In this document: positions 6,269-38,108 of the stretch, piece after piece
Numbering within the stretch: the stretch's first letter is position 1
Layout: each line of letters starts with the position of its first letter
NCBI GenBank assembly: GCA_964607285.1
Contig: CAZSJW010000001.1
Coordinates: 2,514 to 66,513 of the forward strand
Direction: 5' to 3'
DNA length: 64,000 nt
DNA from: an uncultured Pseudomonadales bacterium
GTDB lineage: Bacteria > Patescibacteriota > Microgenomatia > UBA1400 > PJMF01
Position numbers and translations under genes: made by a program
Notes under the pieces: generated by a model
Told to the model about the DNA's origin: nothing
Database searches by the model: none
The model's input: the letters and a program-made list of their open reading frames with translations, nothing else

Positions 6269-7216
6269 ATGGCACTAAATCTAGCACAATACCCAGGAAT
6301 GAACCCTTCATTCCAAATTACCAGTTCCTCTGCAACAGCCAGTAAGGCAAGCATTGCTTTAGAGCCGTTGGAGCAGGGATATGGTCATACGCTCGGCAAC
6401 GCTCTTCGACGGGTGATGTTAAGTTCATTACCAGGAAGTGCTCTTACTGTAGCTAGAATTGCAGGCGCAGATCATCAATTCTCAACAATTGCGGGAATGA
6501 CTGAAGACATATTGGAGCTTACCCTCAACTTAAAGCTAGTTCGCATCAAAGCAACCTCAGCAGCTGAGACGGGCACAATGCGTCTTACCGTAAAAGGACC
6601 CGCAACAGTTACAGCAGCTGACATTGAACCAACAGCTGGTTTCGAAGTAGTAAACGGTGAACAACACATAGCAACCTTGGCAAAAGGAGCTACTTTGGAC
6701 ATAGAGTTAGCAATTGAGTCTGGTGTCGGGTACTCAACAGCAAATGAGCGAGAGTCCGCAGGAATTGGAGAAATAGTACTAGATGCACTGTACTCACCAG
6801 TAGTAAAAGTTTCTTACCAAGTTGAAGCAACTCGTGTGGGCCGAAGAACTGACTACGATAAGCTAGTTCTTGATGTCCAGACTGACGGAAGCATTACTCC
6901 TCTTGAAGCAGTTCAGCAAGCAGCAATGATACTAGTTCGCCAGTTCGACCAAGTAGTTGAACCTGCACTAGTTGAAGAGCCAAAAATGGAAGTTGCACTC
7001 TCCCCAGAGGAAGCTGAAGTGCTTCGTCTGACTGTAGAGGAACTTGACTTACCAACTCGTATTGCAAACGCATTGCGAAAAGGTGGCTTCAAGACTGTTG
7101 GTGACTTAGTTGGTGTTCCTAGAAACACAGTCGCTAAAGTAAAAAACCTCGGTGGCAAAAGTGTAGTTGTGATTGAAGAAGCACTTGCTAAGAAAGGTGT
7201 TGAGCTAGGTAGTTAA
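6269..7216 (+). CDS. rpoA: DNA-directed RNA polymerase subunit alpha
   Basis: LEPLEQGYGHTLGNALRRVMLSS N-terminal domain motif. AAGGAG RBS at 6258-6263 supports ATG 6269; the track ORF starts at 6251. Confidence 0.92.
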   Translation: MALNLAQYPGMNPSFQITSSSATASKASIALEPLEQGYGHTLGNALRRVMLSSLPGSALTVARIAGADHQFSTIAGMTEDILELTLNLKLVRIKATSAAETGTMRLTVKGPATVTAADIEPTAGFEVVNGEQHIATLAKGATLDIELAIESGVGYSTANERESAGIGEIVLDALYSPVVKVSYQVEATRVGRRTDYDKLVLDVQTDGSITPLEAVQQAAMILVRQFDQVVEPALVEEPKMEVALSPEEAEVLRLTVEELDLPTRIANALRKGGFKTVGDLVGVPRNTVAKVKNLGGKSVVVIEEALAKKGVELGS

Positions 7217-7249
7217 GCTACAGCCAACCATTAGGAAAGAAAAAATTGT

Positions 7250-7702
7250 ATGAGACACAGAGTTAAAGTAAACAAGTTTAACCGTGACACCAAGCACAGA
7301 GAGTCTCTTTTCAAGAATCTCGTACGCTCTTTGGTGGAGCATGGTTCGATTACAACCACTGAACCAAAAGCAAAAGAAGTTAAACGTTTGGCTGATCGTT
7401 TGATAGGTAAAGCCAAAACAGATTCAGTACATATGCGTAGACAACTGCACGAGATATTCGGCAAGCGTGATGTGGTAAACACACTAGTGGACAGAATTGC
7501 TCCATTGTTTACGGATAGAGTGTCTGGTTTCACTACTTTGACTGCCGCAGGCACTCGCAGAGGTGATAATACACGAATGGTAGAGATTTCGCTGGTACTC
7601 AAACCCGAAGTTGCAGGGTTGAAAAATCCTTCACCATCGGTGGCAGCAGAAGTCAAGAAAGTGACTGCGAAACCAGCAGCGAAGTCAGTCAAGAAAGCCT
7701 AA
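7250..7702 (+). CDS. rplQ: 50S ribosomal protein L17 with K/A-rich C-terminal tail
   Basis: MRHRVKVNKFNRDTKHRESLFKNLVRSL signature. Confidence 0.93.
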   Translation: MRHRVKVNKFNRDTKHRESLFKNLVRSLVEHGSITTTEPKAKEVKRLADRLIGKAKTDSVHMRRQLHEIFGKRDVVNTLVDRIAPLFTDRVSGFTTLTAAGTRRGDNTRMVEISLVLKPEVAGLKNPSPSVAAEVKKVTAKPAAKSVKKA

Positions 7703-7705
7703 ATA

Positions 7706-8149
7706 ATGCAAAAAACATACATGCAAAAAACAGCTGATGTGACCCGAGGATGGCACTTAGTTGATGCCGAGGATAAAATCCTAGGTGTGGTGGCTACAGA
7801 GATTGCTGTCAAGCTGATGGGTAAAGACAAAAAAGAGTACACACCACATATTGAGAGTGGTGACTATGTAGTTGTGATCAATGCTGCCAAAGTAGCAGTA
7901 ACAGGCAAAAAACGTGATCATAAAATGTATTACCGTCACTCTAACTACCCTGGTGGTTTGCGAGAAAAGACATTTGCTCAGCTCATAGAAACAAAGCCCG
8001 AGGACATTATCACCTTGGCAGTAAAAAATATGTTACCAAAAAACCGACTTCGTGATCCTCGTTTAGCTCGACTCAAAGTCTATGCTGACGACTCACACAA
8101 GCATCAAAGTCAACTCGGTGGTACTACCGAAGCAAGTACAAGCAAGTAA
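7706..8149 (+). CDS. rplM: 50S ribosomal protein L13
   Basis: KTADVTRGWHLVDAEDKILG...; L13 signature. Lies 4 nt after rplQ, so the L13-S9 operon is fused to the alpha operon. Confidence 0.92.
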   Translation: MQKTYMQKTADVTRGWHLVDAEDKILGVVATEIAVKLMGKDKKEYTPHIESGDYVVVINAAKVAVTGKKRDHKMYYRHSNYPGGLREKTFAQLIETKPEDIITLAVKNMLPKNRLRDPRLARLKVYADDSHKHQSQLGGTTEASTSK

Positions 8150-8169
8150 GTTACGCGAAACGAGATAGT

Positions 8170-8685
8170 ATGGCACTCAAGCTTAGTAAGAAAAACACTA
8201 AAGTTCAAAAAGTTGTAAAAAAAGCTACACCAGTAGCGCAAAAATCAACTCGTAGTTCTGGCGCAGTTCGCTCGCAGGTCACGCTCCCAACTGGCCAATA
8301 TACTGAGGGTGTAGGTCGCCGAAAGGTAGCAACTGCTCGTGTTCGTATTTACGAGGGTATGGGTGATTTTGTAGTCAATGGCCGTGTGGTGGGTGAGTAC
8401 TTTGCAACTGTTCCTTCTGCTACTCTTCGATATCTCCAAGCATTTGAAGTAACTGGTACCAAAGGCAAGTTTGCAGTTAGTGCAAAAGTGTCAGGCTCAG
8501 GTCCCTCAGCTCAATTGGATGCAGTCGTACATGGCTTATCTCGTGCGTTAGTAAAGTTCAATGGTGAATACCGTGGTTTGCTTAAAACAGCAGGCCTTCT
8601 GACTCGTGATGACCGCATGAAAGAGACTCGAAAAATCGGTATGGGTGGTAAAGCTCGCCGAAAACGACAGTCACCAAAGCGATAA
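8170..8685 (+). CDS. rpsI: 30S ribosomal protein S9 with K-rich N-terminal extension
   Basis: C-terminal GGKARRKRQSPKR and GRRKVATARVRI motifs. Confidence 0.92.
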   Translation: MALKLSKKNTKVQKVVKKATPVAQKSTRSSGAVRSQVTLPTGQYTEGVGRRKVATARVRIYEGMGDFVVNGRVVGEYFATVPSATLRYLQAFEVTGTKGKFAVSAKVSGSGPSAQLDAVVHGLSRALVKFNGEYRGLLKTAGLLTRDDRMKETRKIGMGGKARRKRQSPKR

Positions 8686-8726
8686 GCTGAATTTATTTTT
8701 ACTTCGATTTTTTTCTTTGGGTCTTG

Positions 8727-9101
8727 CTAACTATTTTTTGTGGGGCTATTTGCATTTTTATAATAATTTGCCAGAAGCGTGAGTGTTGTTATGGTCGCTG
8801 ATGAAAGTGATAAAACAATACTATCTACAGACATCTGCGCTTCCATCAGCCCAGCCGTATGTAGTAAAAAAGTGATGAGCACAATAGCTAATTCTGGAGC
8901 AGTTGCTAACAGTATATTCAGTATCTCTTTGAGTATAGGTAATGGGTCGGTTGTTTTTTCAGAGGCATCCAGCAATTCCTGAACTAGAACTCCTTTTAAT
9001 AAACCAACAAGCATTGCAACAGAAATGGGAAGTTCAGTTAGGGCGGAAGTAGTTTGTTCTGAGGATTGAGTAAGTACTTCTGCAAGTAATGTAGACTGCA
9101 T
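8727..9101 (-). CDS. Hypothetical small hydrophobic protein, last gene of the ABC operon
   Basis: 124-aa ORF co-directional with and 35 nt downstream of the final permease. Hydrophobic; no family recognised. Confidence 0.3.
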   Translation of the reverse strand: MQSTLLAEVLTQSSEQTTSALTELPISVAMLVGLLKGVLVQELLDASEKTTDPLPILKEILNILLATAPELAIVLITFLLHTAGLMEAQMSVDSIVLSLSSATITTLTLLANYYKNANSPTKNS

Positions 9102-9135
9102 GTTTGTTCGTCAATGAGCTATTTTCCAGAGTATA

Positions 9136-9957
9136 TCATCCCCCTGCCCCACTGTATTGTCTCAGAGCAAGTTTCCAAATAATCAAACTAAGACCTAGAA
9201 GTCCAATTCCCGCTAGTACGGTGCCAGCTATTGTGTATACATGGATTGAACCAAGTAGCACAGTTGTTGGAATAGTCACCATAAGTCCCACAGGCATAAC
9301 AAAGTACAGTATAGACCTGAGTGGCTCTTGATACACTGTGACTGGAAACTGTCCAAGCCTGATCAAGTCTCTGTATAACCAAATAACACCATCCACATCA
9401 ACAATAATGATGCCTGCTGCCATAACAAGAATATGCATTCCCAGCGCGATTAGATAGCCATTTGCCAAAAGTAACAGATACCACAAGATGCCGGAGAGTG
9501 ACAGGACAATGTCTAGCTTACTTACGATCCAGAGCGAAACTCCAACAACTGGTAGTAAGAAAAGTGCATCGTTAATATCAGGATGACCCATGAGTGCTCG
9601 AAACAAAGGGCTGATGGGTTTGCTCAGGTAGCTATCAAACCGTCCATCTCGGATTAGCGGGGAAAACATGTAGACACCACGAAATAACACCGCTGTGCTC
9701 ACATCTAAAAATTGATACGTGAGGAAGAATACTACAACTTGATCTGGGCTGTATCCTGCCATGCCTGCTTCTGATTTCCTCAGTACAAATAAAAACACTA
9801 GCATCATACAGAAGCGAACCGTTTTGCCAAAGAAAAATAAAGCGTTCGTCCAAGGAGATATAAATGTTTGTTGGAGTGCGTTGGAAGCAGTTGTGAACCA
9901 AATAAGCCAGTAGGTTTTTAGTCTCCGTAAAGTCATGTTATTGTCCTGCAGCCGCAT
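9136..9957 (-). CDS. ABC-2 family transporter permease (PF06182-like), paralog 6
   Basis: About 6 TM helices and the C-terminal ...RQYSGAGG motif shared by all six paralogs. Confidence 0.72.
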   Translation of the reverse strand: MRLQDNNMTLRRLKTYWLIWFTTASNALQQTFISPWTNALFFFGKTVRFCMMLVFLFVLRKSEAGMAGYSPDQVVVFFLTYQFLDVSTAVLFRGVYMFSPLIRDGRFDSYLSKPISPLFRALMGHPDINDALFLLPVVGVSLWIVSKLDIVLSLSGILWYLLLLANGYLIALGMHILVMAAGIIIVDVDGVIWLYRDLIRLGQFPVTVYQEPLRSILYFVMPVGLMVTIPTTVLLGSIHVYTIAGTVLAGIGLLGLSLIIWKLALRQYSGAGG

Positions 9958-10729
9958 ACTGCTTCATACCACGTCGCCATACGGTACGGATGACTATGGT
10001 GCCTATACAGAGCCAAGCTACAAAAATCACTGTATGTTGGAGCAGTGTGCTTGTGTCTAATTTTCCTAAGAAAAGCTGAGTTTGCACGAATGACAGGTAG
10101 GGCAAAGGAGTGAGAAACAGAATTGTTTGAATAGCTTCAGGTAAAATATCTAGAGGAAATAACTTCCCTGCGGTAAAATCAAGCATAATAAAGAATAGGA
10201 ATCGTGGTGCCCACGTTTCTGGACTCCAAAAGCCAATTGAGCCGAGAAGGGAAAGGATAATACCGTTTAAGTACACCGCACCTAGTGTCCAGAAACCAAA
10301 CAAGAGCAGTGTACTGCCCGAAGGTAGATGCAACGATGGAGTGAACATTGACCATAATAGTACAGACTCAGCAACTAAAAATAAGAAATTTTTAAGTTTG
10401 TCTGCAACCTCTTGGATAAAAAAATACCCAAATATACTCATAGGGCGAATTAGAATAATACTTAACCCTCCAGAATAGATAAACTCTGACATACCATGCA
10501 AACTGCTACTGAGTACAACACTTTGCAGGAGAGAGATAAGAAAAATGTATGTTATGGCACTCTCTTGTGTGTATCCTGCCACAGTAGTATCATTTCCAAG
10601 CAACAATGACCACACCGTGAGTGCCATGAATGTAGCCATGAAATTGCGAAATCGCCATAAGAGAACACTGGTGCGATACACAAAACCATTTTGCCAAGTA
10701 GTTGAGAAAAGTTGCAGGTACTTTTTCAT
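9938..10729 (-). CDS. ABC-2 family transporter permease, paralog 5
   Basis: Polytopic; C-terminal ...MKQYAAAGQ. Confidence 0.72.
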   Translation of the reverse strand: MKKYLQLFSTTWQNGFVYRTSVLLWRFRNFMATFMALTVWSLLLGNDTTVAGYTQESAITYIFLISLLQSVVLSSSLHGMSEFIYSGGLSIILIRPMSIFGYFFIQEVADKLKNFLFLVAESVLLWSMFTPSLHLPSGSTLLLFGFWTLGAVYLNGIILSLLGSIGFWSPETWAPRFLFFIMLDFTAGKLFPLDILPEAIQTILFLTPLPYLSFVQTQLFLGKLDTSTLLQHTVIFVAWLCIGTIVIRTVWRRGMKQYAAAGQ

Positions 10730-10736
10730 TGGCTAC

Positions 10737-11759
10737 TTAGTTTGATTTTGGTTTTTTCGTGCTTTGTTTTTCAAACACCTCACGAATGATTGCTTCAATT
10801 GGTGGTTCCTCAATGTTCACGTCTTGCACTGGTAATTTATTGAGAATTTGCGCAGCAACTTTGGTGGCAGTTGCTCGGGGAACTAGAATGGTTGCCGTAT
10901 ATGCAGATCCATCTTCACTATGTTCTTTGACTTCACCAAACTGTTTGAGAGCAGAGCGAGTTACGGGTTCTGAAAAAGTAAACGACAAAATCTTATTCCG
11001 TGCAAAAGTATCGATGATTTTTTGCAGCTCACCATCAAATATTTTCTGACCACGGTCAATAATGATAGCGCGTTTGCACAGTTCTTTGACGTCTCCCATG
11101 TAGTGGCTGGTCAGGATAATTGTTGATCCAAACTCTTTGTTATACTGTTTTATAAAGTCTCGTAAGGTTTTTTGCATTACCACATCAAGTCCAATGGTTG
11201 GTTCATCCAAAAATAATACTTGTGGGTTATGGAGTAGTGCAGCTATAAGTTCACATTTCATACGTTGGCCTAAAGACAGTTTCCTCACTTGCACATCTAG
11301 AATTTCTGAAACATCTAGAAGGTCAACTAACGTACTCAGTGTTTTTTTGAACTGAGCCTCTGGTATCTCATAAATTGCTTTGTTGAGCAAAAATGTCTCC
11401 ATGGCGGGCAAGTCCCACCATAGTTGATTTTTTTGACCCATCACTAGTGCAAATTGTTTTTGAAATTCTGGTTTGCGATCCCAGGGGTTGTAGCCGAGTA
11501 CATTGACTGAACCTTCAGTCGGATACAGCAAGCCCGAAAGCATTTTGAGTGTTGTAGTTTTTCCCGCACCATTTTGGCCAATGAAACCAACAACTTCACC
11601 AGGTTGAATAGTGAAACTAACATCATCTACCGCTTTGACTTCGTGATACTCTCTATGCCAGAGCGACTTGAATGAACCAAGCAAGCCTGCTTCTTTATGA
11701 TAAACCTTGAAATATTTTTTGAGGTTTTGGATGGAGATGATGGGCGGTGTGTCTGACAT
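10737..11759 (-). CDS. ABC transporter ATP-binding protein
   Basis: Walker A GQNGAGKTTTLKML, signature LSLGQRMK, Walker B LFLDEPTIGLD, H-loop. It is the single ATPase among the six permeases. Confidence 0.92.
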   Translation of the reverse strand: MSDTPPIISIQNLKKYFKVYHKEAGLLGSFKSLWHREYHEVKAVDDVSFTIQPGEVVGFIGQNGAGKTTTLKMLSGLLYPTEGSVNVLGYNPWDRKPEFQKQFALVMGQKNQLWWDLPAMETFLLNKAIYEIPEAQFKKTLSTLVDLLDVSEILDVQVRKLSLGQRMKCELIAALLHNPQVLFLDEPTIGLDVVMQKTLRDFIKQYNKEFGSTIILTSHYMGDVKELCKRAIIIDRGQKIFDGELQKIIDTFARNKILSFTFSEPVTRSALKQFGEVKEHSEDGSAYTATILVPRATATKVAAQILNKLPVQDVNIEEPPIEAIIREVFEKQSTKKPKSN

Positions 11760-11800
11760 ATGAGCTTCCTTGGATATATTGTACAGGATGTGCTAGTGTA

Positions 11801-12592
11801 TTAGGAGCTTACAGATGTATACGCTCTCAGCGCATACTTCCAGGCATATCGATGTAAGACATAAAAAATACAAAGTAAGACACACTCATAGAATACTAGC
11901 TGCCATGGTCTGTGTCCTAGCAGGAACAAGGTGGGGACATAGCCTAAGAATGCTACTGGGACGATAGCAATCAGCACGAACTGGAGTGATCCAGGAAAAA
12001 TGGAAATGGGATACTGTCCTGAGTCACTTGTTTTATCAAACAGTTCTAAAATCTGCTCAGCTCGAGTCATAACAAAGCCGAGTGTGGCGTACGTTGTCAA
12101 TGCAAAGTAGTGTACGAGCAAGCCTAACGAGACGACACAAAGTGCCAGCAGACTATTGGTGAGGCTGAGTTGCTCATGGACTTGTGATGCTTGATGTAGA
12201 AACAGTGCAATACAGAGGCCAAGCAGAGGAAGTTGGGTAAGGTCAGGTTTGCCCCAGGCTATGAAAAAAATAGGAGAAATTGGTTTGGTAAGATACTGGT
12301 CAACAACACCATGTCTGATTCCATCCCACAAGAATGATCGTAGGGCAACTATGTAGAGAATAAAGGCTATTGTGTACATGATGAAACACACACTGAGCAG
12401 CAGGGTGGACTCAGTCCGATTCCAGCTACCAAGTTCAGGTGCACGTTGGTACGCAAGTTGTTGCACCATGAATAACACGCCCATGTAGGCGGGCCCGTGT
12501 AGGAAGTGCACAAATGTATTCAGACGAAACGCAAGCAACACTTGCAGTCTTGTGAGAAATAACAGGTAATAAATATTGAGGTATCTCATCAT
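11801..12592 (-). CDS. ABC-2 family transporter permease, paralog 4
   Basis: Polytopic; C-terminal ...RAYTSVSS. Confidence 0.72.
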   Translation of the reverse strand: MMRYLNIYYLLFLTRLQVLLAFRLNTFVHFLHGPAYMGVLFMVQQLAYQRAPELGSWNRTESTLLLSVCFIMYTIAFILYIVALRSFLWDGIRHGVVDQYLTKPISPIFFIAWGKPDLTQLPLLGLCIALFLHQASQVHEQLSLTNSLLALCVVSLGLLVHYFALTTYATLGFVMTRAEQILELFDKTSDSGQYPISIFPGSLQFVLIAIVPVAFLGYVPTLFLLGHRPWQLVFYECVLLCIFYVLHRYAWKYALRAYTSVSS

Positions 12593-12594
12593 AT

Positions 12595-13377
12595 CTAGAT
12601 TCCAGTTCCCTCATATTCCTGTATGCCCATACGCCAAAGCCATTGATTTCCAATATGCAGTACCACACCCCAGAGTGCTAGGGTACACAGACCGATAAGA
12701 CTTTCCTGTACAGTCAGTGCTCCTTGCAGGAGCCGTATTGGTGTTGAGGCTAAATGGGGGAAGGGTGTGAGAATAAGTATAGATTGTGCCCATTCAGGGA
12801 AGTAGTCAAAGGGTAGTAATAGCCCAGATAAAAAACGAAACAACACCGTCAAACCCCAGCGGACTGCAAAAATTTCAGTAAACCAAAATGCGCACACACT
12901 GATACTGCTGAGCAGTAAAAATGATACATAAAAAATAAGTGGAATATAGAGACTAAATAGTGCAAGTTGCAGTGACTCGGCATGAAATGAAAAACCAAAC
13001 ATATAAGCAAGGGGAACAAATGAAACAGCCTTCAACAGTGTGGCCAGCCCTGACTCGGCACCGATTTTGACCACATAAAACCAGTGTGGTGAAATTGGTT
13101 TAACTAAAAAACGAGATAAACCACCCTGCTTGATGTCTACTTCAATTTCATACGGGTGAAAGTTGCTGAGTGTGTAGAGAATTGCTGCACCAACAAAGTA
13201 GGTGATTGTTTCTGCTCTTGTGTAGCTGGCTGCAGGATTTGACTGCTCTACCGCCAACCATACCAGTGCAGTGAAGACAATCATGAGACTGTACTTTATC
13301 GTACTTAGCAGAAAATTAACCCGATACTCTAATGTATCTTGGATGGCAATTTTGGTAATCAAACCGTACACAGACAT
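12595..13377 (-). CDS. ABC-2 family transporter permease, paralog 3
   Basis: Polytopic; C-terminal ...IQEYEGTGI. Confidence 0.72.
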   Translation of the reverse strand: MSVYGLITKIAIQDTLEYRVNFLLSTIKYSLMIVFTALVWLAVEQSNPAASYTRAETITYFVGAAILYTLSNFHPYEIEVDIKQGGLSRFLVKPISPHWFYVVKIGAESGLATLLKAVSFVPLAYMFGFSFHAESLQLALFSLYIPLIFYVSFLLLSSISVCAFWFTEIFAVRWGLTVLFRFLSGLLLPFDYFPEWAQSILILTPFPHLASTPIRLLQGALTVQESLIGLCTLALWGVVLHIGNQWLWRMGIQEYEGTGI

Positions 13378-13392
13378 ACCAGGTATTGTAAA

Positions 13393-14193
13393 CTAACTCC
13401 CAGCACCCGCGTAGCGCAAGACGGAGTAGTGAAAAAATGTTCGTGCAGCAACAGTACTTACAATAGCAAAGGCCATAAAGTAGAGTAGCCAGTTGAGTTC
13501 CCATCTCCCAAGCAAGACTTCTGCGGGTATAGAACTCAGTAATCCAAATGGGAGTATTACAGTGAAGAGAAGTGCGCCCATTCCTTGATAGATACCACGA
13601 GGAACTTGAAACACTCTGCGTAGTCCTGGAATAATGTCGTTTATATTGTTGAGTCGCTCTACATAAAATGCCATTGTGGAAATTGCAAACCAAGTGTTGT
13701 AAATAATCAGCAGGCTGCATCCTAGTAGTGCAGTGTATGCTGCAATCGTTAGAAGACTTATAGGTACTCCAACTTTTTGTACACTCCACCACAAAATGCC
13801 CGCACCAATAATGAGTCGTGAGATCTGGGAATAGTTATTATCATGAATAGCCAGTAATAGTTGTGGATCCACAGGACGCAGTAAGAAGAGGTCAAAACTG
13901 CCATCAAATATGGATTGCGTGTACACACGCATTATTCTGTTAAAGAACGACCAGGTGAAGGAGTCTAGAATTGTGAATGTTGCTAACAGCACATATAACT
14001 CTGCGGTGTTCCACCCTGCAATAGTACCGTTGACTCGTAGCAGCAAGGCAAAAAAGAAAAAGTTGAACAGTGTCCATAGTATTGAAATAAAGGACCAAAA
14101 ATAAAAATTTGCTCTGTACTCAAACAGCAGCATCAGCCTGAGAGCGCGGAACTTCCAGAACAAATACCAGTAATAACTTACTCGGTTTTGCAT
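13393..14193 (-). CDS. ABC-2 family transporter permease, paralog 2
   Basis: Polytopic; C-terminal ...LRYAGAGS. Confidence 0.72.
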   Translation of the reverse strand: MQNRVSYYWYLFWKFRALRLMLLFEYRANFYFWSFISILWTLFNFFFFALLLRVNGTIAGWNTAELYVLLATFTILDSFTWSFFNRIMRVYTQSIFDGSFDLFLLRPVDPQLLLAIHDNNYSQISRLIIGAGILWWSVQKVGVPISLLTIAAYTALLGCSLLIIYNTWFAISTMAFYVERLNNINDIIPGLRRVFQVPRGIYQGMGALLFTVILPFGLLSSIPAEVLLGRWELNWLLYFMAFAIVSTVAARTFFHYSVLRYAGAGS

Positions 14194-14196
14194 GGG

Positions 14197-15036
14197 TTAT
14201 CCTCCAGATGAAGCGTACTTGCGTACCCCGCTGCGCCAAAGTGCATCCACAGCAACCCCGAGTACCACCATTGTTGCTGCCAACATGAAAAGATCGCTAG
14301 ATTCAAGCACATATCTTCCTTGCAAGACACCTATGGGCACTGCATATAAAAACTTAAACGGGAGGAGGTTCGTGATTGTTCGCAGCCAATCAGGGAGAAA
14401 CTCCAAAGGCATGAGGGTGCCGCTGAGTATGGTGATACCTAGGAGTTTGAAGTGTTCCAGGCCTTGCGCCCCTTCAAACCAAAACGTTAGAAACGTGATC
14501 AGAATGCCAATGGCAAGTTGCATGAGGTATGCCACAAAAACAAGTGCTAGGAAACGGGCGAGAGTAATTAGTGAGATGGGTGGCAATGTAGTTCCTACTA
14601 CTTCTGCTGACCAATATATGAAAATAGAAAAAACTGGCAGAAACATACTGGCGTATAAAAGCTTACCGACTGTCTCACCCAAAACAATATCAGTCAGGTA
14701 GTAGTATGGCTTGGTGAAAAATCGATCAATTTGTCCCAAGCGAATTTCATCAGACCGCCAACCTTCAAAATGCACCTCAGTGAGGTTTGAGAGCAAGGCA
14801 CTGACTAGATAGTACGTGGTGATATCCGCTAACGTGTATCCATTAATGCTATTTTGGTCAGCATACAATTCCTGCCAGATGAGAAACAGGATAGCAAATG
14901 GCAAAAAACTCATGACAATCCAAATGGCCATTTCAGTGCGAAAAACCAAGACACGAGATATTTTGAAACGGACAATATGCAGATATCGCCAGATAGAGGC
15001 TAGAAAGCTGTGCTGAAGCGTACCAATGGCATGCAT
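14197..15036 (-). CDS. ABC-2 family transporter permease, paralog 1
   Basis: Polytopic; C-terminal ...RKYASSGG. Start lies 4 nt after the HU stop. Confidence 0.72.
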   Translation of the reverse strand: MHAIGTLQHSFLASIWRYLHIVRFKISRVLVFRTEMAIWIVMSFLPFAILFLIWQELYADQNSINGYTLADITTYYLVSALLSNLTEVHFEGWRSDEIRLGQIDRFFTKPYYYLTDIVLGETVGKLLYASMFLPVFSIFIYWSAEVVGTTLPPISLITLARFLALVFVAYLMQLAIGILITFLTFWFEGAQGLEHFKLLGITILSGTLMPLEFLPDWLRTITNLLPFKFLYAVPIGVLQGRYVLESSDLFMLAATMVVLGVAVDALWRSGVRKYASSGG

Positions 15037-15040: not shown

Positions 15041-15316
15041 TTACCATACAGCTTTGCGAAGAGGTTTACCAGCTTTGAAGTTGACTACACGATGAGCTTT
15101 GATAACTTGGCGTTTCTTTTCATCACCAAATGGGACAACTTCTTTGTCATCGACTTCACCAACATACAGAGTGCCAAAGCCTGAGAGCACTACTTTCTCT
15201 CCTTTTTTGAGGGTTCTAGTCATTTCTTCGATTAAGGCATCTATTGCCTCTTCTGCAGCTCGCTTAGTGAGATGAGCTTTTTTTGCGACGATAGCGACCA
15301 ATTGTGATCTTGTCAT
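15041..15316 (-). CDS. hup: HU family DNA-binding protein
   Basis: 91 aa with the GFGTF/RxGRNPxTGE-type arm (VLSGFGTLYVGEV...) typical of HU/IHF. Confidence 0.88.
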   Translation of the reverse strand: MTRSQLVAIVAKKAHLTKRAAEEAIDALIEEMTRTLKKGEKVVLSGFGTLYVGEVDDKEVVPFGDEKKRQVIKAHRVVNFKAGKPLRKAVW

Positions 15317-15416
15317 AGGTGTCCTTTCAGATGCAGTACTAGTTTGAACTATTTGTTAGGTAGAGTACACAGTCTAATATATTAGCCTGCTAAGTCAAGT
15401 AGAAGATGTAGTGCTA

Positions 15417-15800
15417 CTAGAGATACTTGTATCGCCACAATAAAGCGAGGCTGGCACCGAGTGTGTCGTAGCATATGTCACGGGCTGTGGCTGTCCTGCC
15501 AGGTACAAGTGATTGATGGTACTCATCTGAGACAGCGTATACCATGGTCAGTAAAAATGGAATGAGCCATGCAGCGTGTGTTGTAGCATTTGGGTTTGTG
15601 AGGCGATGTGCTCTATGCAGCAAAAGGTATAAGACAGCATACACACCTACATGAGCCATTTTCTTAAAGAAAAACTCATAATTGGATGCTTGAAATGACG
15701 GTAAGGCTTGCTGGGAGGAGAGGAAAAAAATCAATCCTGCCCAACAAACAGGAGGTGCGTAGGCGATAGCCCATTGAAATGTTTGTTGTGCTAGTTTCAT
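15417..15800 (-). CDS. VanZ-like family membrane protein
   Basis: 127 aa with 4 TM segments and a DEYHQSLVPGR motif typical of the VanZ family. Confidence 0.7.
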   Translation of the reverse strand: MKLAQQTFQWAIAYAPPVCWAGLIFFLSSQQALPSFQASNYEFFFKKMAHVGVYAVLYLLLHRAHRLTNPNATTHAAWLIPFLLTMVYAVSDEYHQSLVPGRTATARDICYDTLGASLALLWRYKYL

Positions 15801-16969
15801 GTCGGGTACTTTGGAGGCTGTGTATATAGTACAGTTGCACCACCCATCAGCAAAAATCCACTACCCAGTATAGCACCCAGAACTGCACCTTGTGGGATAT
15901 TCCTTTGTCTATATTCTAGAGTTCGCATAGGTTCTGTATGTGCAGAGGTGGTACTTTCTGTGTACTGTTTGAAAAGTATGGGTAGTGCAAGTGGAGGCTT
16001 TTTTTTCTTTGCAGGGGAAAGTAAGGTTCCAGGTGTTGCGGTTGGTGAAGCTTCTATCGTATGAGTGGAAAGTGAGGGGCTGGGGGAGGGAACTGTTGGG
16101 CTTGCAGCTAGAATTGTAGTTTCTGTCTGCCATTCACCTTCGATCAGTAGCAATGGTTCTCCAATGGTGCATGACGTGTACTTCGCTGAGGCAAGCACGA
16201 CGCCTGAACTAGACAGCACGAATACAGTGTCTCCAGTATTATTGAGCATATCTGCAGTCCACTTGATTGAGCTTTCGGCAAGTGGTGGAAGTGACCCTGT
16301 AGTTTGTCTTTGGTTTTGTTGTTCATCTGTGATACGTATTGTGCTGAGATCAAGTATGGTTGTTCCTGTGTTGGTGATGGTGACGTACTCATCTGTATCT
16401 GTTGCAGGGCAAGGGAAAAGCTCGGATATAGAGATTTTTGCTGGTGACGCCGTAGGTGACGGTGTGGGTAGTAGTATAGGACTTGCACTGGGACTTGATG
16501 TCGGTTGCGGTGTTGGTTCACTCAGCATACTTAGGTATGTGCCAGGACTTGGTTCGCTGATTTGCCAAGTGTTTACTGTTCTGGCCCAACTTTTGGCTTG
16601 TTCACTTGCTGAGTAGCTAAATGAATCTGTGATGTCTATTGCAGGTGTGCGCAAGGTGACCCCATCTGCTGCGTTATTCAATTTTGGGTTTTCAAAGGTG
16701 AATACTTTTGTTTCTCCAGGGTTGAGTGTTATATGCAAGGTGAGTAGCAAACTGGGCGAGCTCAGTTCATCCCAGAGTTCCCAATTGGTTAGGTCTATTG
16801 CTTCTGCATCGGGGTTATGGAGCTCGATCCATTCAGGCTCACCACTTGCTGGGTTTGGATGTAGTTCAGTAATGAGGACAGAGGAAAAAACGGGTTTCGC
16901 TCCTGCTACCAAAGCCCAAGTGTAGAACAGGCAAGTCAACATGAAAAACCGAGATACAAACATCTTCAT
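15797..16969 (-). CDS. Surface protein with two lamin-tail domains, P/T/S-rich linkers and a C-terminal TM anchor
   Basis: N-terminal signal peptide. ITELHPNPASGEPEWIELHNPDAEAIDLTNWEL is the LTD signature, followed by a second LTD (ISELFPCPATDTDEYVTITN...). Linkers PTPQPTSSPSASP and PTVPSPSPS; terminal hydrophobic helix. 4-nt overlap with the downstream vanZ-like gene. Confidence 0.68.
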   Translation of the reverse strand: MKMFVSRFFMLTCLFYTWALVAGAKPVFSSVLITELHPNPASGEPEWIELHNPDAEAIDLTNWELWDELSSPSLLLTLHITLNPGETKVFTFENPKLNNAADGVTLRTPAIDITDSFSYSASEQAKSWARTVNTWQISEPSPGTYLSMLSEPTPQPTSSPSASPILLPTPSPTASPAKISISELFPCPATDTDEYVTITNTGTTILDLSTIRITDEQQNQRQTTGSLPPLAESSIKWTADMLNNTGDTVFVLSSSGVVLASAKYTSCTIGEPLLLIEGEWQTETTILAASPTVPSPSPSLSTHTIEASPTATPGTLLSPAKKKKPPLALPILFKQYTESTTSAHTEPMRTLEYRQRNIPQGAVLGAILGSGFLLMGGATVLYTQPPKYPT

Positions 16970-17021: not shown

Positions 17022-20000
17022 CTAGGTTGCAGGTGAATTACTCTTAGGTGTTTTTTGTCTTTGTAGTAGCCCTGTGGCAACTAAAAAACTGCAGACTAAC
17101 AGTATCCAGATACCAATAAAGAGTAGTATTTGTGCATCGTGAATAACTATAATTGTAGTTACCCCCTCAGGTATGAACCATCCCTGTGCCCAATTATTGA
17201 CTGTAACTTCTGCTTTGATCTGCTGATGCTTGAGTACGCTTTGGAGAGCACTCCATACAGAAGTACCATCCCAGACATAGGCTCGCCAGCCAGGGTTCCT
17301 TGACTCATTGAGTGACATCACTCCATTTTCACCGTTCAGTTCAACCCAGTATGTACCAGTTCCCCAGCGTTTTATGGTGTTTACTGCCAGATTAGTGCTA
17401 TATAGCTGAGTATTTTTTGGGATAAGGGCAACTTGTGATAACCATTCAAACGAGGCAGGCATGGGTTGTATGGAGATCGCGTTCAACTCGTTTTGTGCTA
17501 GTTCTGTTCCGTACGATCTATTTTCAAAGTGCAGACTGTATTGAGAGATAGCCTGGTTTTTCCAATCAGGCACAGTTACCCACATATCAAACTCTTTGGA
17601 AGTCATAACGTGCTCAAAATCAACGCGGTTAGTGGCTAAGTTCTCCAAGTAGGCACGAATGTTTCGACCTGCATGATTTTTACCTGTAATGCGCAGCAGT
17701 GCAGGCGTTTGATTATTTGCGTGTGGAATGATGAAGCTATCACAGCCCGTTGCGCCACCACTGTTTTCATACAGCACAGAGTTGGCAGTCATAGTTTTAT
17801 TGCGAGAACCCCTATCAAACTCTGTACATGATGCAAACTTTGTTATGTGCAGTGAATCTAGTAAGTTACTGCTAGCAATGGTTGTAAGCACTAAAGTGGG
17901 TTGGTCTTGATCAAGGCGAACACTGGTGGTGGGGAGTTGTAGTTCATTCCAGATTGCAGAAGGTATAGTGGCAGTGTGTAAGTCACTGGACTCAATCAGG
18001 ATATGGGTAGCAGAGGGAGTTGCGATAGCTGTATCGAAGTAGTTGATGGTGATTTCCTCACCGTAGCGCAGCCCAGTTAGCGACACCGCTTGCTCTGAGT
18101 TTGCTTTAAGTTCTATCACTTGCCCGTTTAATTCAATAGTAAGTGCCTCAGGTGAAACAGCAAGTGGAACAGCTACGGATGGGAGTGTCGGGAACTCGAT
18201 ACTGGTATCTCCAGCTAAGACGCGCAGTGGTGTACTGAATGCTATCTTGAGCTCGGCATCTGAGTAAGCCAGTTTTGCAGTTTGGCTAAGATATTGGCCT
18301 TGAGTCAGCGGTGGGAAAGTGAGTTCGTACTGGCCTGAAAGCGTTTCGTGTGCCACAAACGAAGGCCCATTGGATGTGTTTGTGATAGGAATACTCTCTT
18401 GCTGCAAGTTAGCAAAAGGGTAGATGGTGTGTGGGATAGTCTCATCTGCCGTAATGGTATCAGTAGTGAGGAGAGTGCTGGGATCAAATCTAGAGTACAG
18501 AGAGTTTGCAGTGGTGTACGTAGCAGATTGCACCGCACTGACGGGTGCCACGGCAACAGATTTGTTTTGGTACAGGGAAATGCTTCCCAGCGTTCCCACT
18601 TTTTCAACACCAGGTAGCATAGCCAACATGGCTTGCAGTTCTGCCACAAAGAACACCTCTTTATTCGTGTTTGGCAAATATACTGAATCGTCCAGTAGTA
18701 CATGTGCAATGTTGTATTTCTGTAGCAATCTATCTAACTGATCTACATCCTGGTTGTACACCGCTCGCTGCATTTCCAATCGGTAGGTTTCATTAAAGGG
18801 ACTCCAGACGTCAAACGAACGCCCGAGAATAGGCTGATGCATGCCGTACCAGAGAAACCCAGAGCCTGTGTACCCTCTGTGTTCCATCCAACTGTGCATA
18901 TCCCAGCCTGTATAGGTGTAGATGGGAAACACAGCAACTCTCCCATATCTGGGCCGCTTGGCAAAGTACTCCATGACCTCTGTATACTCCTCAGGCAACT
19001 TGACTCGTGCTCCTTGATACAGGAAGTGGCCCTGCATACTTGGCCAGGATAACCAAAGTACGCAGAGTACGCACACTATGCCCGTTGTGTTGCGAGCTCG
19101 CGCTATTGTCTGTTGGGTAAGTCGCCTGGAGAAAAGTTCAAACAGCCCCGATATGCCTACCGCTGCCCAGAGTGATAGAAAAAGACTAGCAGACATAGAA
19201 AGCTTAGAGTAGGGAATTCTAAAGGCTTGATTAAGAATGGGTACAAAGCGAATGGCATCTGAAACATAGGTGAGAGGCCAAGTATCTGTGAGAAGTAGCA
19301 CGAAGGTACAAACAGCCGCGATTGCCAGCCCTGTGGCGGTGGCACTTCTCTTGCTGAGTCGAACTGCTCCCCACCCAACTCCCCATAGGCTGAGCAGGGC
19401 TATACTGTACCCAATCATGCGCACTACGGGTGACTCGAGGTGCTGCTTCCATGGAGTTAAAATTAATTCAAGAGGGCTGCCACTGTCAAATCTAGCTTGG
19501 TCATATGAGTCAAATAAGAACCCTTCAAGCAGAGACACCTCGGCTAAGTTGCCAGTAGCTCTTGTGGTGTAAATAAACTCTGTGGTGGTAATTTGATTAA
19601 GCTTTGCAAACAAGTAGTGATCACCTTGGGTGGCGGTGAAATAGGCAACGGGAGCCAGCCAGTAGGCGTTAGTGGCAAGTACTATCAATACCGCTAAAAG
19701 GCTGGTACGTACGGTCTCCCATCGTTTGGGGTGTATGAAGAACGCTGTACTGGCAGCACAACCTAAAAATAGCCCGTACGTGATAAAGAGTGGCGGAATA
19801 AAGCCAATAATGGAAAGGTAAAGATTGAGTAGGAAGAACACCACGAGTTTCCTGGTGGTTCGGTTTTCCAGTAATCCTACGAAACTCCAGAGTACCCATG
19901 GGAGCACTCCGTACATGACCGCAAAGGGCTCGAGTGCCACGTAAAATGTTTGAACAGTGCCTGGATGAAGTAAGTACAGCAGCGCGCCGATTGTCGCGGC

Positions 20001-20408
20001 CCAGGATTTAGTGTTCTGTTTGAGATTCAGCTGTTCTAGTGTTTGCGCAGTGAGGACGTATGCTCCAAGCACTCCGACTAGCAGCATGAGGTACATAAAT
20101 GCGTAGCGCAGGTACTGCAAAGGTATAAATAAACCAAGCACAGCTTGTGTTACAGCATGAAATAGTTGCGCAGAGTACCCATGCCCGCCAAGTAGTCCCA
20201 GTCCTTGGAAGCTTTGCCAGGCACCAGTTATTGAACGCTCAATGTTGAGTGCAGGGTTAAACTCACTGGCCATAGTATCCCAGCTGAGAAACCAGGTACC
20301 AAGTTCAGTATTAGTTAGGACAATTGCCAACCAGGCAACAAACACTACAACCACGCCCAAGTGTTTACTGAGCAAAGACTGGAATGAGCTTTTTAAGCCG
20401 TGCCACAT
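17022..20408 (-). CDS. Large polytopic membrane protein (1128 aa), possible GT-C superfamily glycosyltransferase (AftD/DUF3367-like) with a big extracytoplasmic domain
   Basis: More than 10 N-terminal TM helices. The first loop (WFLSWDT...NPALNIERSITGAWQ...GHGYSAQLFH) resembles the AftD-type loop. Roughly 600-aa soluble C-terminal region and a final TM helix. The family call is weak. Confidence 0.45.
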   Translation of the reverse strand: MWHGLKSSFQSLLSKHLGVVVVFVAWLAIVLTNTELGTWFLSWDTMASEFNPALNIERSITGAWQSFQGLGLLGGHGYSAQLFHAVTQAVLGLFIPLQYLRYAFMYLMLLVGVLGAYVLTAQTLEQLNLKQNTKSWAATIGALLYLLHPGTVQTFYVALEPFAVMYGVLPWVLWSFVGLLENRTTRKLVVFFLLNLYLSIIGFIPPLFITYGLFLGCAASTAFFIHPKRWETVRTSLLAVLIVLATNAYWLAPVAYFTATQGDHYLFAKLNQITTTEFIYTTRATGNLAEVSLLEGFLFDSYDQARFDSGSPLELILTPWKQHLESPVVRMIGYSIALLSLWGVGWGAVRLSKRSATATGLAIAAVCTFVLLLTDTWPLTYVSDAIRFVPILNQAFRIPYSKLSMSASLFLSLWAAVGISGLFELFSRRLTQQTIARARNTTGIVCVLCVLWLSWPSMQGHFLYQGARVKLPEEYTEVMEYFAKRPRYGRVAVFPIYTYTGWDMHSWMEHRGYTGSGFLWYGMHQPILGRSFDVWSPFNETYRLEMQRAVYNQDVDQLDRLLQKYNIAHVLLDDSVYLPNTNKEVFFVAELQAMLAMLPGVEKVGTLGSISLYQNKSVAVAPVSAVQSATYTTANSLYSRFDPSTLLTTDTITADETIPHTIYPFANLQQESIPITNTSNGPSFVAHETLSGQYELTFPPLTQGQYLSQTAKLAYSDAELKIAFSTPLRVLAGDTSIEFPTLPSVAVPLAVSPEALTIELNGQVIELKANSEQAVSLTGLRYGEEITINYFDTAIATPSATHILIESSDLHTATIPSAIWNELQLPTTSVRLDQDQPTLVLTTIASSNLLDSLHITKFASCTEFDRGSRNKTMTANSVLYENSGGATGCDSFIIPHANNQTPALLRITGKNHAGRNIRAYLENLATNRVDFEHVMTSKEFDMWVTVPDWKNQAISQYSLHFENRSYGTELAQNELNAISIQPMPASFEWLSQVALIPKNTQLYSTNLAVNTIKRWGTGTYWVELNGENGVMSLNESRNPGWRAYVWDGTSVWSALQSVLKHQQIKAEVTVNNWAQGWFIPEGVTTIIVIHDAQILLFIGIWILLVCSFLVATGLLQRQKTPKSNSPAT

Positions 20409-21720
20409 ACTGCCATTCTAGAGTGTTTCTGAGCGGGTTGGAAGTGTAGATGGTAGTGAGCTCTTCTTGCAGGCGCACTTCTGGTGATCGTTGCACAGCG
20501 AGGTCTTTAGCAAGGGCAGCAATTTTTCTGCGTACAGAAACTTTACCCAGTAGTCTGAGGTGCTCTACGAACGAGCGTTTGTTTCGCTTAAAGACCAACT
20601 TGTCTGTAGAGATTGCGTGTTTGGCTAGCAGCTCTTGGATATCACCACTCTGTAAATATGCACCTAAGTCTTTGGAAAGTATGAAGGGTACGCCGTAGGC
20701 AATACCTTCACCCCAGGATGCAGATGCACCAAGGATGCCACGGTATGGTAGTACTGCCATATCTGCAACAGCAAAGTAACGGCTGAGCTCTGCATCAGGA
20801 ATGAAGCCAGTCAGACGAATGTTTTTAGAGTGCACTGCAGCCTGACTGAGTGAGCGGTAGAACTGCTCATAGTGGGTTTTTCCCGTTTGGGATGGGGCTT
20901 TTCCCCCTGCCAAAATAAGATGCAGTTCTGCATCCCCCAACTGATCTGCAGCAATATCTCGAACTGCATTCACCAGCCAATCAACACCTTTGTATCGAGT
21001 CATGAAGCCGAAACAGACTAAGACTAAATCATTTGGTTTGAAACCCATTCTGGCTCTCCAGTAGCGGCGGCCCTTTAGATTTTTTGGGTACACCCAGAGA
21101 GGTGATACAACTAATTTTTGTTGTGCTACATATGGGGAGAGACGTTGGCGCATGCTGTCATCTAGACAAATAATTTGATCAAGACACATACCGAGTACTC
21201 GGTAGTACCAAGGCAAAAGTTTGGTTAGTGCCTGCATAGTTTTGCCAGTCTGCGAACGACCCAAGTGGCGAGCTAGAAAGCCAAAATTTGTGATCACATT
21301 ATGTGCAAAGTAACTGAGGAAGTATCCTGCACTTCTCAGAGCAAGATAAAAAGGAAGGGCAGCGGCCATCTGCAGCATGTTTCCACTGGTGTAAAACTCA
21401 GAGTGGATATGTAAATGTTTTGCTTTATTGAATAGTCTCAATGCTTGGGAGATCTGAAGGTACATTTTAGGAGACGCTGAAAAAACTGGCAGCACTAAGA
21501 CTCTGCCTCGCTCCAGAAGCTGTGGTTTGCGGTCATATTCCTGCTGAACTAAAACCACAAATCGCTGTTTTGTGCTGCGAGCGACAGTGCCAACAGTTTG
21601 CTGGGTGTACTTTGCTACACCATGATATGAGTGGGCAATGTTCTGGTAGGGGTACTTGGAAAGCACCAAGATCGTATCTGGCGAGTTGAATCGCGAAATG
21701 ATCTGTTTTGATAGTTTCAT
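20365..21720 (-). CDS. Glycosyltransferase family 4 (GT-B fold)
   Basis: C-terminal region LPYRGILGASASWGEGIAYGVPFILSKDLGA matches the GT4 E-x7-E region. 451 aa; overlaps the upstream gene by 44 nt. Confidence 0.65.
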   Translation of the reverse strand: MKLSKQIISRFNSPDTILVLSKYPYQNIAHSYHGVAKYTQQTVGTVARSTKQRFVVLVQQEYDRKPQLLERGRVLVLPVFSASPKMYLQISQALRLFNKAKHLHIHSEFYTSGNMLQMAAALPFYLALRSAGYFLSYFAHNVITNFGFLARHLGRSQTGKTMQALTKLLPWYYRVLGMCLDQIICLDDSMRQRLSPYVAQQKLVVSPLWVYPKNLKGRRYWRARMGFKPNDLVLVCFGFMTRYKGVDWLVNAVRDIAADQLGDAELHLILAGGKAPSQTGKTHYEQFYRSLSQAAVHSKNIRLTGFIPDAELSRYFAVADMAVLPYRGILGASASWGEGIAYGVPFILSKDLGAYLQSGDIQELLAKHAISTDKLVFKRNKRSFVEHLRLLGKVSVRRKIAALAKDLAVQRSPEVRLQEELTTIYTSNPLRNTLEWQYVARLKKLIPVFAQ

Positions 21721-23432: not shown

Positions 23433-23510
23433 GGTGTGGCTGATTATACGGTAAGGTAGTGGGTGTTTGCTGGGTTAGTTTGGTGCATGGAAGAGACTGA
23501 CTTGATACAA

Positions 23511-23540
23511 AAAGCCCCTCTTGGGGGAGGGGCTTTTCGA
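23511..23540 (-). terminator. Rho-independent terminator (bidirectional-type hairpin) downstream of the repeat-protein gene
   Basis: AAAAGCCCCTC-TTGGGG-GAGGGGCTTTT hairpin flanked by A- and T-runs. Confidence 0.6.
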
Positions 23541-23562
23541 TGATTGTTGGTTTTGGGTGGGG

Positions 23563-24132
23563 TTAGGAGGACGGCTCGAACCAGAAGGTGGCACCTGTGT
23601 CCCACCCTCTCGCATAGTAGTCGTTGTAAGCCAGTTGCCAGCTAGGGTGAGTGTTTAGCTCACCTCCAACATCCACAACATGGTTTCCGCTGACATTCGG
23701 ACACGGATTTTCGTTCGGAATTTCTGAGTGAGGAGGCACTGGCCAAGCCACGCCACCTGTGCAGTATCCCGCGGGGGGTTGCATGGGGCCTGAAAACAGT
23801 ATCGGGAGAAAAATCACATTTGTGCCTCCCTGCATAGGCTCGAACCAGAAGGTGGCACCTGTGTCCCACCCTCTCGCATAGTAGTCGTTGTAAGCCAGTT
23901 GCCAGCTAGGGTGAGTGTTTAGCTCACCTCCAACATCCACAACATGGTTTCCGCTGACATTCGGACACGGATTTTCGTTCGGAATTTCTGAGTGAGGAGG
24001 CACTGGCCAAGCCACGCCACCTGTGCAGTATCCCGCGGGGGGGGTCACTGTTCCGCCCTGCCCATGCACAACAAGGGCAGTCAGCAGTGAAAAGAAAAAA
24101 ACAAGCATAGTCATTGTCAACTTGCGTTCCAT
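23563..24132 (-). CDS. Secreted Cys-rich protein made of two identical 88-aa repeats
   Basis: Signal peptide MERKLTMTMLVFFFSLLTALVVHG, then PPAGYCTGGVAWPVPPHSEIPNENPCPNVSGNHVVDVGGELNTHPSWQLAYNDYYARGWDTGATFWFEP twice. GC-richer than the neighbouring genes. Confidence 0.7.
   Translation of the reverse strand: MERKLTMTMLVFFFSLLTALVVHGQGGTVTPPAGYCTGGVAWPVPPHSEIPNENPCPNVSGNHVVDVGGELNTHPSWQLAYNDYYARGWDTGATFWFEPMQGGTNVIFLPILFSGPMQPPAGYCTGGVAWPVPPHSEIPNENPCPNVSGNHVVDVGGELNTHPSWQLAYNDYYARGWDTGATFWFEPSS
23573..24044. repeat. Perfect tandem duplication: two copies of ~206 bp at 264-bp period
   Basis: 23573-23778 is identical to 23837-24042. The copies differ only in a homopolymer G-run (6 G at 23773-23778 versus 8 G at 24037-24044). 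Confidence 0.9.
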
Positions 24133-25708: not shown

Positions 25709-25747
25709 ACTACAATGAGTATACAGGAAACCGTGGTAGTTAGAACT

Positions 25748-38066: not shown

Positions 38067-38108
38067 ACGAGCAGGTGTTGATTTCGTTTATCGCTGAGGA
38101 TAAACAGT

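Follow-up and report, generated by a model that had tools for sequence, protein, structure and literature searches.

Three alternating permease pairs around a single ATPase gene in a DUF990-family ABC exporter locus of a Patescibacteria genome

How can a single ATPase gene account for six permease genes in one exporter locus? The question is raised by an ATP-binding cassette (ABC) transporter locus in a 64,000-nt stretch of DNA, here called the window, that spans positions 2,514 to 66,513 of contig CAZSJW010000001.1 (assembly GCA_964607285.1); the source is recorded as an uncultured Pseudomonadales bacterium and is placed by GTDB in the Patescibacteriota, Microgenomatia. The initial annotation described six tandem ABC-2 permease paralogs with one ATPase, and proposed either a hetero-oligomeric exporter built from all of them or a battery of substrate-specific permeases sharing one motor. 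Members of the family to which the permeases belong, DUF990 or EVE, normally have one ATPase and two permeases (PMC5417439; PMC6003355). The evidence presented below indicates that the six genes are three permease pairs, which may each be served by the one ATPase.

Nine open reading frames (ORFs) follow one another on the minus strand, from 15316 down to 8727, with the transporter genes arranged head-to-tail at 9136-15036:

15041-15316, minus strand: HU gene, 91 aa (PF00216, E 1.2e-20), the first gene of the conserved block
14197-15036, minus strand: permease P1, 279 aa, type A of the distal pair 1 (PF06182, 70 bits, profile positions 2-229 of 229)
13393-14193, minus strand: permease P2, 266 aa, type B of the distal pair 1 (PF06182, 149.5 bits)
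12595-13377, minus strand: permease P3, 260 aa, type A of the proximal pair 2 (PF06182, 46 bits; also PF01061, 36.7 bits)
11801-12592, minus strand: permease P4, 263 aa, type B of the proximal pair 2 (PF06182, 109 bits)
10737-11759, minus strand: ABC ATPase, 340 aa (PF00005, E 7e-28)
9938-10729, minus strand: permease P5, 263 aa, type A of the core downstream pair (PF06182, 55 bits)
9136-9957, minus strand: permease P6, 273 aa from the first ATG, type B of the core downstream pair (PF06182, 113 bits)
8727-9101, minus strand: small ORF, 124 aa, no Pfam match

The order of four permeases, the ATPase, two permeases and a small hydrophobic ORF is the one first described. From HU to the small ORF the spacings are 4, 3, 15, 2, 41, 7, -20 (the P5/P6 overlap) and 34 nt, the first of these being the 4-nt gap already noted upstream of the permeases. 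The public annotation starts P6 at 9936, giving a 266-aa protein. All six permeases score above the gathering cut-off of 22 for PF06182 (ABC2_membrane_6, formerly DUF990), at 46-150 bits and with near-complete coverage of the profile. Secondary matches to PF01061 are weak and confined to P1 (28.5 bits) and P3 (36.7 bits), and PF06182 is the best family for all six. Given these matches, that of the ATPase to ABC_tran, and the intactness of all six permeases, the identification of an ABC-2 exporter locus with six permeases and a single ATPase is secure.

The six permeases are not equal copies. The pairwise comparison proposed with the initial annotation was run with blastp, and it splits the proteins into two subtypes that alternate along the array, A (P1, P3 and P5) and B (P2, P4 and P6). 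Matches among the A types have E values of 1e-14 to 1e-22 with 25-30% identity (P1 vs P3, 8e-22; P1 vs P5, 1.5e-14; P3 vs P5, 4e-22), and those among the B types have E values of 1e-10 to 1e-16 (P2 vs P4, 6e-10; P2 vs P6, 1e-13; P4 vs P6, 3e-16), whereas A-B cross matches reach only 1e-7 or weaker, and for P1 against the B types 6e-7 or weaker. The PF06182 scores alternate likewise along the array: 70, 150, 46, 109, then 55 and 113 bits. Profiles of the P5 and P6 orthologs (78-80 sequences each) align end to end, with an hhalign probability of 97% and an E value of 2.5e-11, and A and B are thus old paralogs sharing one fold. The picture of six tandem paralogs is therefore right as to their number and integrity, and has to be amended in that two subtypes alternate in three pairs. 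The array is (A B)(A B)-ATPase-(A B), that is, three copies of the heterodimer pair that is normal for the DUF990 family, and the real anomaly is the presence of three pairs per ATPase, rather than of six permeases as such.

Related loci show the pair to be the unit of variation. A scan of one genome per species gave 80 loci from 80 different assemblies, mostly of Microgenomates, and no assembly gave two loci; the named relatives include Woese-, Ames-, Chisholm-, Shapiro-, Levy-, Davies-, Beckwith-, Gottesman- and Kerfeldbacteria. All ORFs of the 80 loci were mapped to the window proteins, and architectures were tallied for the 53 loci with both borders visible (complete loci). The recurrent order is HU - n x (A B) - ATPase - (A B), with a total of one to four pairs. 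Writing N for the ATPase, the complete loci are distributed as follows:

ABNAB: 28 of 53
NAB: 11 of 53
ABABNAB, the layout of the window: 9 of 53, plus 2 in which one gene is apparently split
ABABN: 1 of 53
ABN: 1 of 53
ANAB: 1 of 53 (L055, with a lone upstream A)

The alternation of A and B is unbroken across the 80 loci, with no true AA or BB. Two strings that read as AA were each counted as one split gene: in L001, the closest six-gene locus, the apparent split of P1 is a masked run of N with no frameshift, and in L058 the two parts are taken to be one gene. In all complete loci except ANAB, permeases are there or missing as A-B units, and one pair with the ATPase is a common stand-alone state. 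The largest array seen, ABABABNAB, has eight permease genes and one ATPase, with three pairs upstream and one downstream of the ATPase, the last gene being cut by the contig end (L045, Candidatus Amesbacteria GW2011_GWC1_47_15, LCNU01000001.1, 5130-12278). Conservation of the six-copy array in related genomes had been proposed as a check, and the same order is found in at least ten other assemblies.

The pairs also keep their identities. Distance clustering gives three orthogroups per subtype, each fixed in position: P1-like and P2-like genes form the distal upstream pair, P3-like and P4-like genes the pair adjoining the ATPase, and P5-like and P6-like genes the downstream pair. Orthologs of P1, for example, hold the same position in L002-L004, L006, L007, L016 and other loci. 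A P3-like gene is always directly upstream of a P4-like gene, and the two orthogroups have 19 members (P3 of the window and 18 genes of related loci) and 20 members, respectively; P5-like and P6-like genes are found in 65-67 loci. Where only one pair lies upstream of the ATPase, it is of either the P1/P2-like or the P3/P4-like kind, and therefore each accessory pair can be absent alone.

A few of the related loci deserve separate mention. In L028 (JBDTME010000001.1, 1963-9201), the HU-adjacent P1-like gene and its P2-like partner stand about 7 kb apart, and some ten ORFs, on both strands, lie in between; the intervening segment looks like an insertion splitting a pair. In L061 (8523-11051) and L074 (4738-7291), where no HU was seen, the only permeases seen are a pair downstream of the ATPase that is closest to P1/P2. 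L078 (Kerfeldbacteria) and L079 (both at 6633-10990) have two pairs upstream of the ATPase and none downstream. Finally, L016, L057 and many loci whose names begin with CAZ or CAY carry the Patescibacteria-type block under record titles such as 'Vitreimonas sp.', 'Candidatus Bathyarchaeia archaeon' and 'uncultured Pseudomonadales/Gammaproteobacteria'; such records are probably mis-binned or mislabelled.

Two findings would have refuted the initial description of the array, namely disabling truncations in several copies, or an assembly artefact such as a collapsed repeat. Neither was seen. A pseudogene array is ruled out by the full-length profile coverage of the six permeases, none of which has a disabling truncation, and by their intact orthologs at saturated synonymous distance. 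Synonymous sites are already saturated relative to the two closest loci, L001 and L002, in which every gene is intact. Nonsynonymous divergence (dN) from these loci is 0.17-0.28 per permease and 0.057-0.083 for the ATPase; because synonymous divergence (dS) is saturated even against the nearest relatives, these values give no numerical dN/dS, and what can be stated is dN itself and a dN/dS ratio (omega) far below 1. P2, for example, is 72% identical to its L002 ortholog, with a dN of 0.19 and saturated dS. The fastest-evolving copy, P4, is about 65% identical to its counterparts in L001 and L002 and 22-36% identical to those in L003, L004, L006, L007 and L016, and is intact in each. As to an artefact, the region contains no direct DNA repeats of at least 20 nt except one chance 21-mer, and the paralogs within the window share 20-30% identity, which together rule out recent duplication or a collapsed repeat; moreover, the same six-gene order with one-to-one orthologs recurs in the ten or more other assemblies. 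In six loci with more than one pair, the distance between paralogs of one locus is 1.4-3 substitutions per site, and each paralog has closer orthologs in other genomes, at 0.5-1.7. The duplications are ancient. Of the pairs, the core downstream one evolves slowest and the accessory ones faster.

AlphaFold2 models made with ortholog alignments (mean predicted local distance difference test score, pLDDT, 92 for P6 and 84.6 for P5) have an N-terminal helix and six long transmembrane (TM) helices; the TM2-TM3 loop is rich in helix, and short helices separate TM5 from TM6. This agrees with the layout of about six TM segments given in the initial annotation. Fold matches of the models include ABCG2, Cdr1, ABCH, ABCA3/4, PmtD, NosY, CcmB and ABCG5/G8, and both permease subtypes are thus predicted to have the type V (ABC-2) exporter fold. 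A profile search of the PDB with the permease sequences found no solved structure of the family, giving only chance matches with E > 1.

Conserved positions were sought in 293 permeases from all six orthogroups, numbered on the 266-residue form of P6. At six positions one and the same residue predominates in every orthogroup, in at least 85% of its sequences: G98, L104, P107, P198, P215 and Y261. The first three lie in the TM2-TM3 cytoplasmic loop and make up an invariant G-x5-L-x2-P motif. Y261 is a tyrosine of the C-terminal tail, six residues from the end; all six window proteins share it, and it is in the majority (88-99%) in each of the six orthogroups. The shared C-terminal ending Y-x-(S/A/G)-(A/G/S)-G-(G/S/Q) that had been ascribed to all six permeases thus holds for its tyrosine; the full pattern is found in four of the six, P3 ending in YEGTGI and P4 in YTSVSS. 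By region, agreement between groups is highest in the C-terminal tail and lowest in TM5, TM3 and TM2, a weak signal with few clear specificity positions.

The translated ATPase has its motifs intact: Walker A (GQNGAGKTT), the signature (LSLGQ), Walker B (LFLDEPT) with the catalytic glutamate, and the H-loop histidine. It also has an insertion in its N-terminal part and is extended at the C terminus by about 85 aa. Among NCBIfam models the DrrA subfamily fits it best, with a score of 202 bits that falls short of the 312-bit cut-off, and the best PDB sequence matches of its nucleotide-binding domain (NBD) are the NBDs of ABCA3, ABCA4, ABCA7 and ABCA1 (E 1e-45 to 1e-36), with Rv1218c and NosF next; by these matches the NBD is assigned to an ABCA/DrrA-like lineage. 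ATPase homologs number in the thousands. Identity is 74-100% for the best 120, whose named sources are Patescibacteria, Microgenomates, Pacebacteria or Woesebacteria. Identity is 75-93% to orthologs across Patescibacteria and 60-90% across candidate phyla; it is 92-93% to the L002 ortholog and about 88% to that of L001. The ATPase is the most constrained and slowest-evolving gene of the block, and its dN, the lowest in the block, fits a subunit obliged to fit several partners. No second EvrA-like ATPase (EvrA being the ATPase of the characterised family member EvrABC) was found within 10 kb of any of the 80 loci or elsewhere in the 64-kb window. A second ABC ATPase ORF of the window (37080-38087, minus strand), which scores 62 bits to the locus ATPase, is unrelated.

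In 63 of the 80 loci HU directly precedes the transporter genes, the gap having a median of 50 nt. In the window, its start is preceded by a Shine-Dalgarno-like sequence (GAAAGGA), and the 100-nt gap upstream of it holds one candidate promoter:

15371..15398, minus strand: sigma-70-like promoter candidate, TTGACT-16-TAGACT, 9 of 12 matches to the consensus

Promoter-like sites in the region are rarer than in shuffled sequence, and the site upstream of HU is a consensus match only. The stretch between HU and P1 gave no terminator-like site in the scan. Co-transcription of HU with the transporter genes is therefore plausible, given the 4-nt gap, the lack of a predicted terminator between HU and P1, the weak promoter-like site and the conserved adjacency, and a joint transcript of HU and the seven transporter genes is probable. 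A search with Rfam at gathering thresholds found only one RNA element in the window, a tRNA at 52097-52170, and no guanosine tetraphosphate (ppGpp) riboswitch, an element that controls some Firmicutes DUF990 operons.

The reading that we prefer, with a probability of roughly 60%, is that three A/B membrane dimers, which differ in specificity, are alternative partners of a single ATPase homodimer. The homodimer would dock onto any one of the three A/B dimers, so that seven genes would yield three separate (NBD)2-A-B exporters. P5/P6 would be the ancestral core transporter, and P1/P2 and P3/P4 would be old accessory modules with different cargo specificities. Docking would probably use the cytoplasmic elements that are most alike between the paralogs, that is, the G-x5-L-x2-P motif of the TM2-TM3 loop and the tyrosine of the C-terminal tail. 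That the single ATPase serves all the adjacent pairs is suggested by three observations: one-pair loci are common, loci with upstream pairs only exist, and no second cognate ATPase was found within 10 kb in any locus, in the rest of the window, or as a second locus in any of the 80 assemblies. A different cargo for each pair would be the most economical reading of 20-30% identity maintained under selection. As to the kind of cargo, structural neighbours of the permeases move lipid-linked glycopolymers, lipids and amphipathic compounds, and the fold and the NBD type point to amphipathic, lipid-like, or lipid-linked or polymeric substrates leaving the cytoplasmic membrane. Of the two possibilities raised in the initial annotation, then, the battery of permeases sharing one motor is favored, at the level of A/B heterodimers, and the hetero-oligomer is not; the evidence that separates them is the pair-wise presence and absence of permeases and the existence of one-pair loci.

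Several points weigh against this reading. The composition of the complexes is deduced from the genes. Sharing of the ATPase is deduced from gene counts near the locus, within 64 kb of genome, and a second cognate ATPase may be encoded elsewhere. Different specificity is argued from deep divergence only, and the region-wise conservation signal is weak. Subunits of different pairs might cross-pair. The joint transcription with HU is judged from spacing and synteny. The distance patterns of A and B disagree as to the order of the duplications. In addition, we know of no substrate for any Patescibacteria member of the family, and the only characterised family member known to us is defined by a xenobiotic phenotype.

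The shortage of clear specificity-determining positions in the region-wise test also speaks for an alternative that we regard as unlikely, though it deserves some weight: the pairs might carry the same cargo under different conditions, as isoforms that differ in kinetics, regulation, or resistance to interference by host or phage. The faster evolution of the accessory pairs relative to the core pair is what would be expected of copies that are partly redundant or exposed to an arms race. But a divergence to 20-30% identity, under long purifying selection, exceeds what isoform tuning usually needs, and the array shows no conspicuous internal promoter or terminator by which the pairs could be regulated separately, the latter being weak evidence.

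Combinatorial assembly, in which any A would pair with any B to give up to nine combinations on the shared ATPase, seems to us decidedly improbable. In its favor, all A and B proteins keep one fold and the invariant cytoplasmic motif, and all the permeases are probably co-expressed from one block. The genes, however, point to fixed partnerships: A and B are always adjacent, are jointly present or absent, and belong to partner orthogroups of matching size, which suggests that each A co-evolves with its neighbouring B. The lone upstream A of L055 is one locus, and too little to decide the matter.

Could the accessory pairs use another motor? P1-P4 might be driven by an ATPase encoded outside the window, with the local ATPase serving P5/P6 only, and indeed the view is confined to the 64-kb window of a contig of at least 318 kb, and the one other ABC ATPase in this window (37080-38087) is unrelated. 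This arrangement is very unlikely, since the ATPase gene is flanked within the array by pairs 2 and 3; since the ABN and ABABN loci exist, so that upstream pairs can be the sole partners of the ATPase; and since each of the 80 assemblies gave a single EvrA-like locus. The idea that six permeases and several ATPase copies form one hetero-oligomeric machine would suit the tight packing of the genes (gaps of 2-41 nt and one overlap) and a gene order kept in at least ten genomes, but it is scarcely credible given that the number of pairs varies, with pair-wise presence and absence and widespread one-pair loci.

The small ORF at 8727-9101, listed with the locus in the initial annotation, does not belong to it. 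As a subunit it is ruled out by its lack of conservation, its singleton cluster, and the absence of both a Pfam match and a Shine-Dalgarno-like sequence. No homolog was found in the 80 related loci (best tblastn E value 7.8), and the protein forms a singleton cluster in a collection of 15 billion proteins, although it is called as a gene in the public record. The ORF lies in a spacer of about 450 nt (8686-9135) between the P6 stop and the convergent rpsI stop. In the closest relatives the same spacer is 0-40 nt: the P6 stop abuts rpsI in L002, and the gap is 40 nt in L001. The 450-nt spacer could be an insertion remnant or a lineage-specific gene.

Upstream of HU, the following genes continue on the minus strand:

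15417-15800, minus strand: VanZ-like protein
15797-16969, minus strand: Lamin-tail-domain (LTD) protein with Pro/Ser/Thr-rich linkers
17022-20408, minus strand: 1128-aa polytopic membrane protein, no Pfam match
20365-21720, minus strand: glycosyltransferase of the GT1 type

The glycosyltransferase and the 1128-aa membrane protein sit 2-6 kb upstream of the transporter block. Homologs of these upstream neighbours are found in the related loci in unequal numbers (LTD, 29; VanZ, 29; large membrane protein, 14; GT1, 2). In closer relatives a wider synteny is seen, large membrane protein - LTD - VanZ - HU - transporter, converging on rpsI-rplM-rplQ-rpoA. The link to these envelope genes (VanZ, LTD, membrane protein and GT1) is conserved synteny in a subset of the loci only. 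Farther along, at 21783-28986, are six consecutive ORFs (549, 189, 309, 152, 152 and 760 aa) without a Pfam match at E <= 0.001.

DUF990/EVE exporters are, to our knowledge, widespread, and only EvrABC has been characterised, by its xenobiotic phenotype. The family is thus already known; the multiplied pairs around one ATPase are a new layout for exporters. We found no description in the literature of the multiplication of pairs, of its variation from one to four, or of the conserved linkage to HU. In the Microgenomates, few membrane functions near the ribosomal protein cluster are conserved as well as the transporter. If the preferred reading of a shared ATPase is true, the locus would show how a bacterium with a tiny genome diversifies transport cheaply. 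The locus also offers a natural set of matched transmembrane domain (TMD) pairs for studies of NBD-TMD docking specificity.

The nearest known system is EvrABC of Synechocystis PCC 6803, with a COG4586 ATPase and COG3694/COG4587 permeases, which shares with the window locus the Pfam family PF06182 and the unit of one ATPase with two different permeases. The two-permease unit occurs three times per ATPase gene here, and one to four times in the relatives, and the synteny with HU is found here, whereas the viologen phenotype is that of EvrABC. The resemblance of A and B to EvrB/EvrC, and to the two COGs of permeases, holds at the level of two different subtypes per unit. In Firmicutes, operons combine a NatA-like ATPase with COG3694 and COG4587 permeases (PMC6003355), and both BC0513-BC0515 and Synechocystis EvrA/EvrC are filed under TC 3.A.1.141, which bears the name 'Ethyl Viologen Exporter (DUF990) family' (PMC5417439). 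Homologs of evrABC in Microgenomatia bins have been mentioned in passing, in annotation of the KEGG type (PMC10469934), and Synechocystis alone is known to show the viologen export phenotype (Prosecka et al. 2009, cited in PMC10469934).

The type V exporters of glycopolymers, KpsMT, Wzm-Wzt and TarGH, are more distant, at 8-14% sequence identity, and their permeases are one-gene homodimers, whereas each unit here has two diverged genes; a homodimeric PF01061 permease is not what the window encodes. Nor is the carbohydrate-binding domain of Wzt recognisable in the ATPase by Pfam. Two diverged TMD paralogs on ABC-2/type V NBDs are also found in LanFEG lantibiotic immunity, YbhFSR and ABCG5/G8, with a single pair per system and in other Pfam families. 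The logic of one ATPase for many modules is that of the energy-coupling factor (ECF) group II transporters, whose modules are shared. Were one NBD dimer to serve several type V modules, the principle known from importers and ECF systems would be extended to exporters. It is possible, though we would put it forward only tentatively, that the locus represents the first exporter-type 'multitask NBD', in which one unusually conserved ATPase dimer would serve up to four type V A/B modules, possibly with mixed A/B. On that view, genome-reduced Microgenomates would gain from very few genes a set of modules for export to the cell surface, the cargo being, for instance, lipid-like compounds or glycoconjugates used in contact with host cells. 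Among type I importers, the serving of several TMD pairs by one NBD is established (PMC7658222, PMC4519317). The multitask NBDs MsiK, MsmK and MsmX follow the logic proposed here from the genes, one ATPase for several membrane modules (PMC7658222, PMC4519317). They belong to importers with unrelated TMD folds and are usually encoded apart from their modules, whereas in the window the predicted partners are exporter-fold heterodimers and the ATPase gene lies amid one array.

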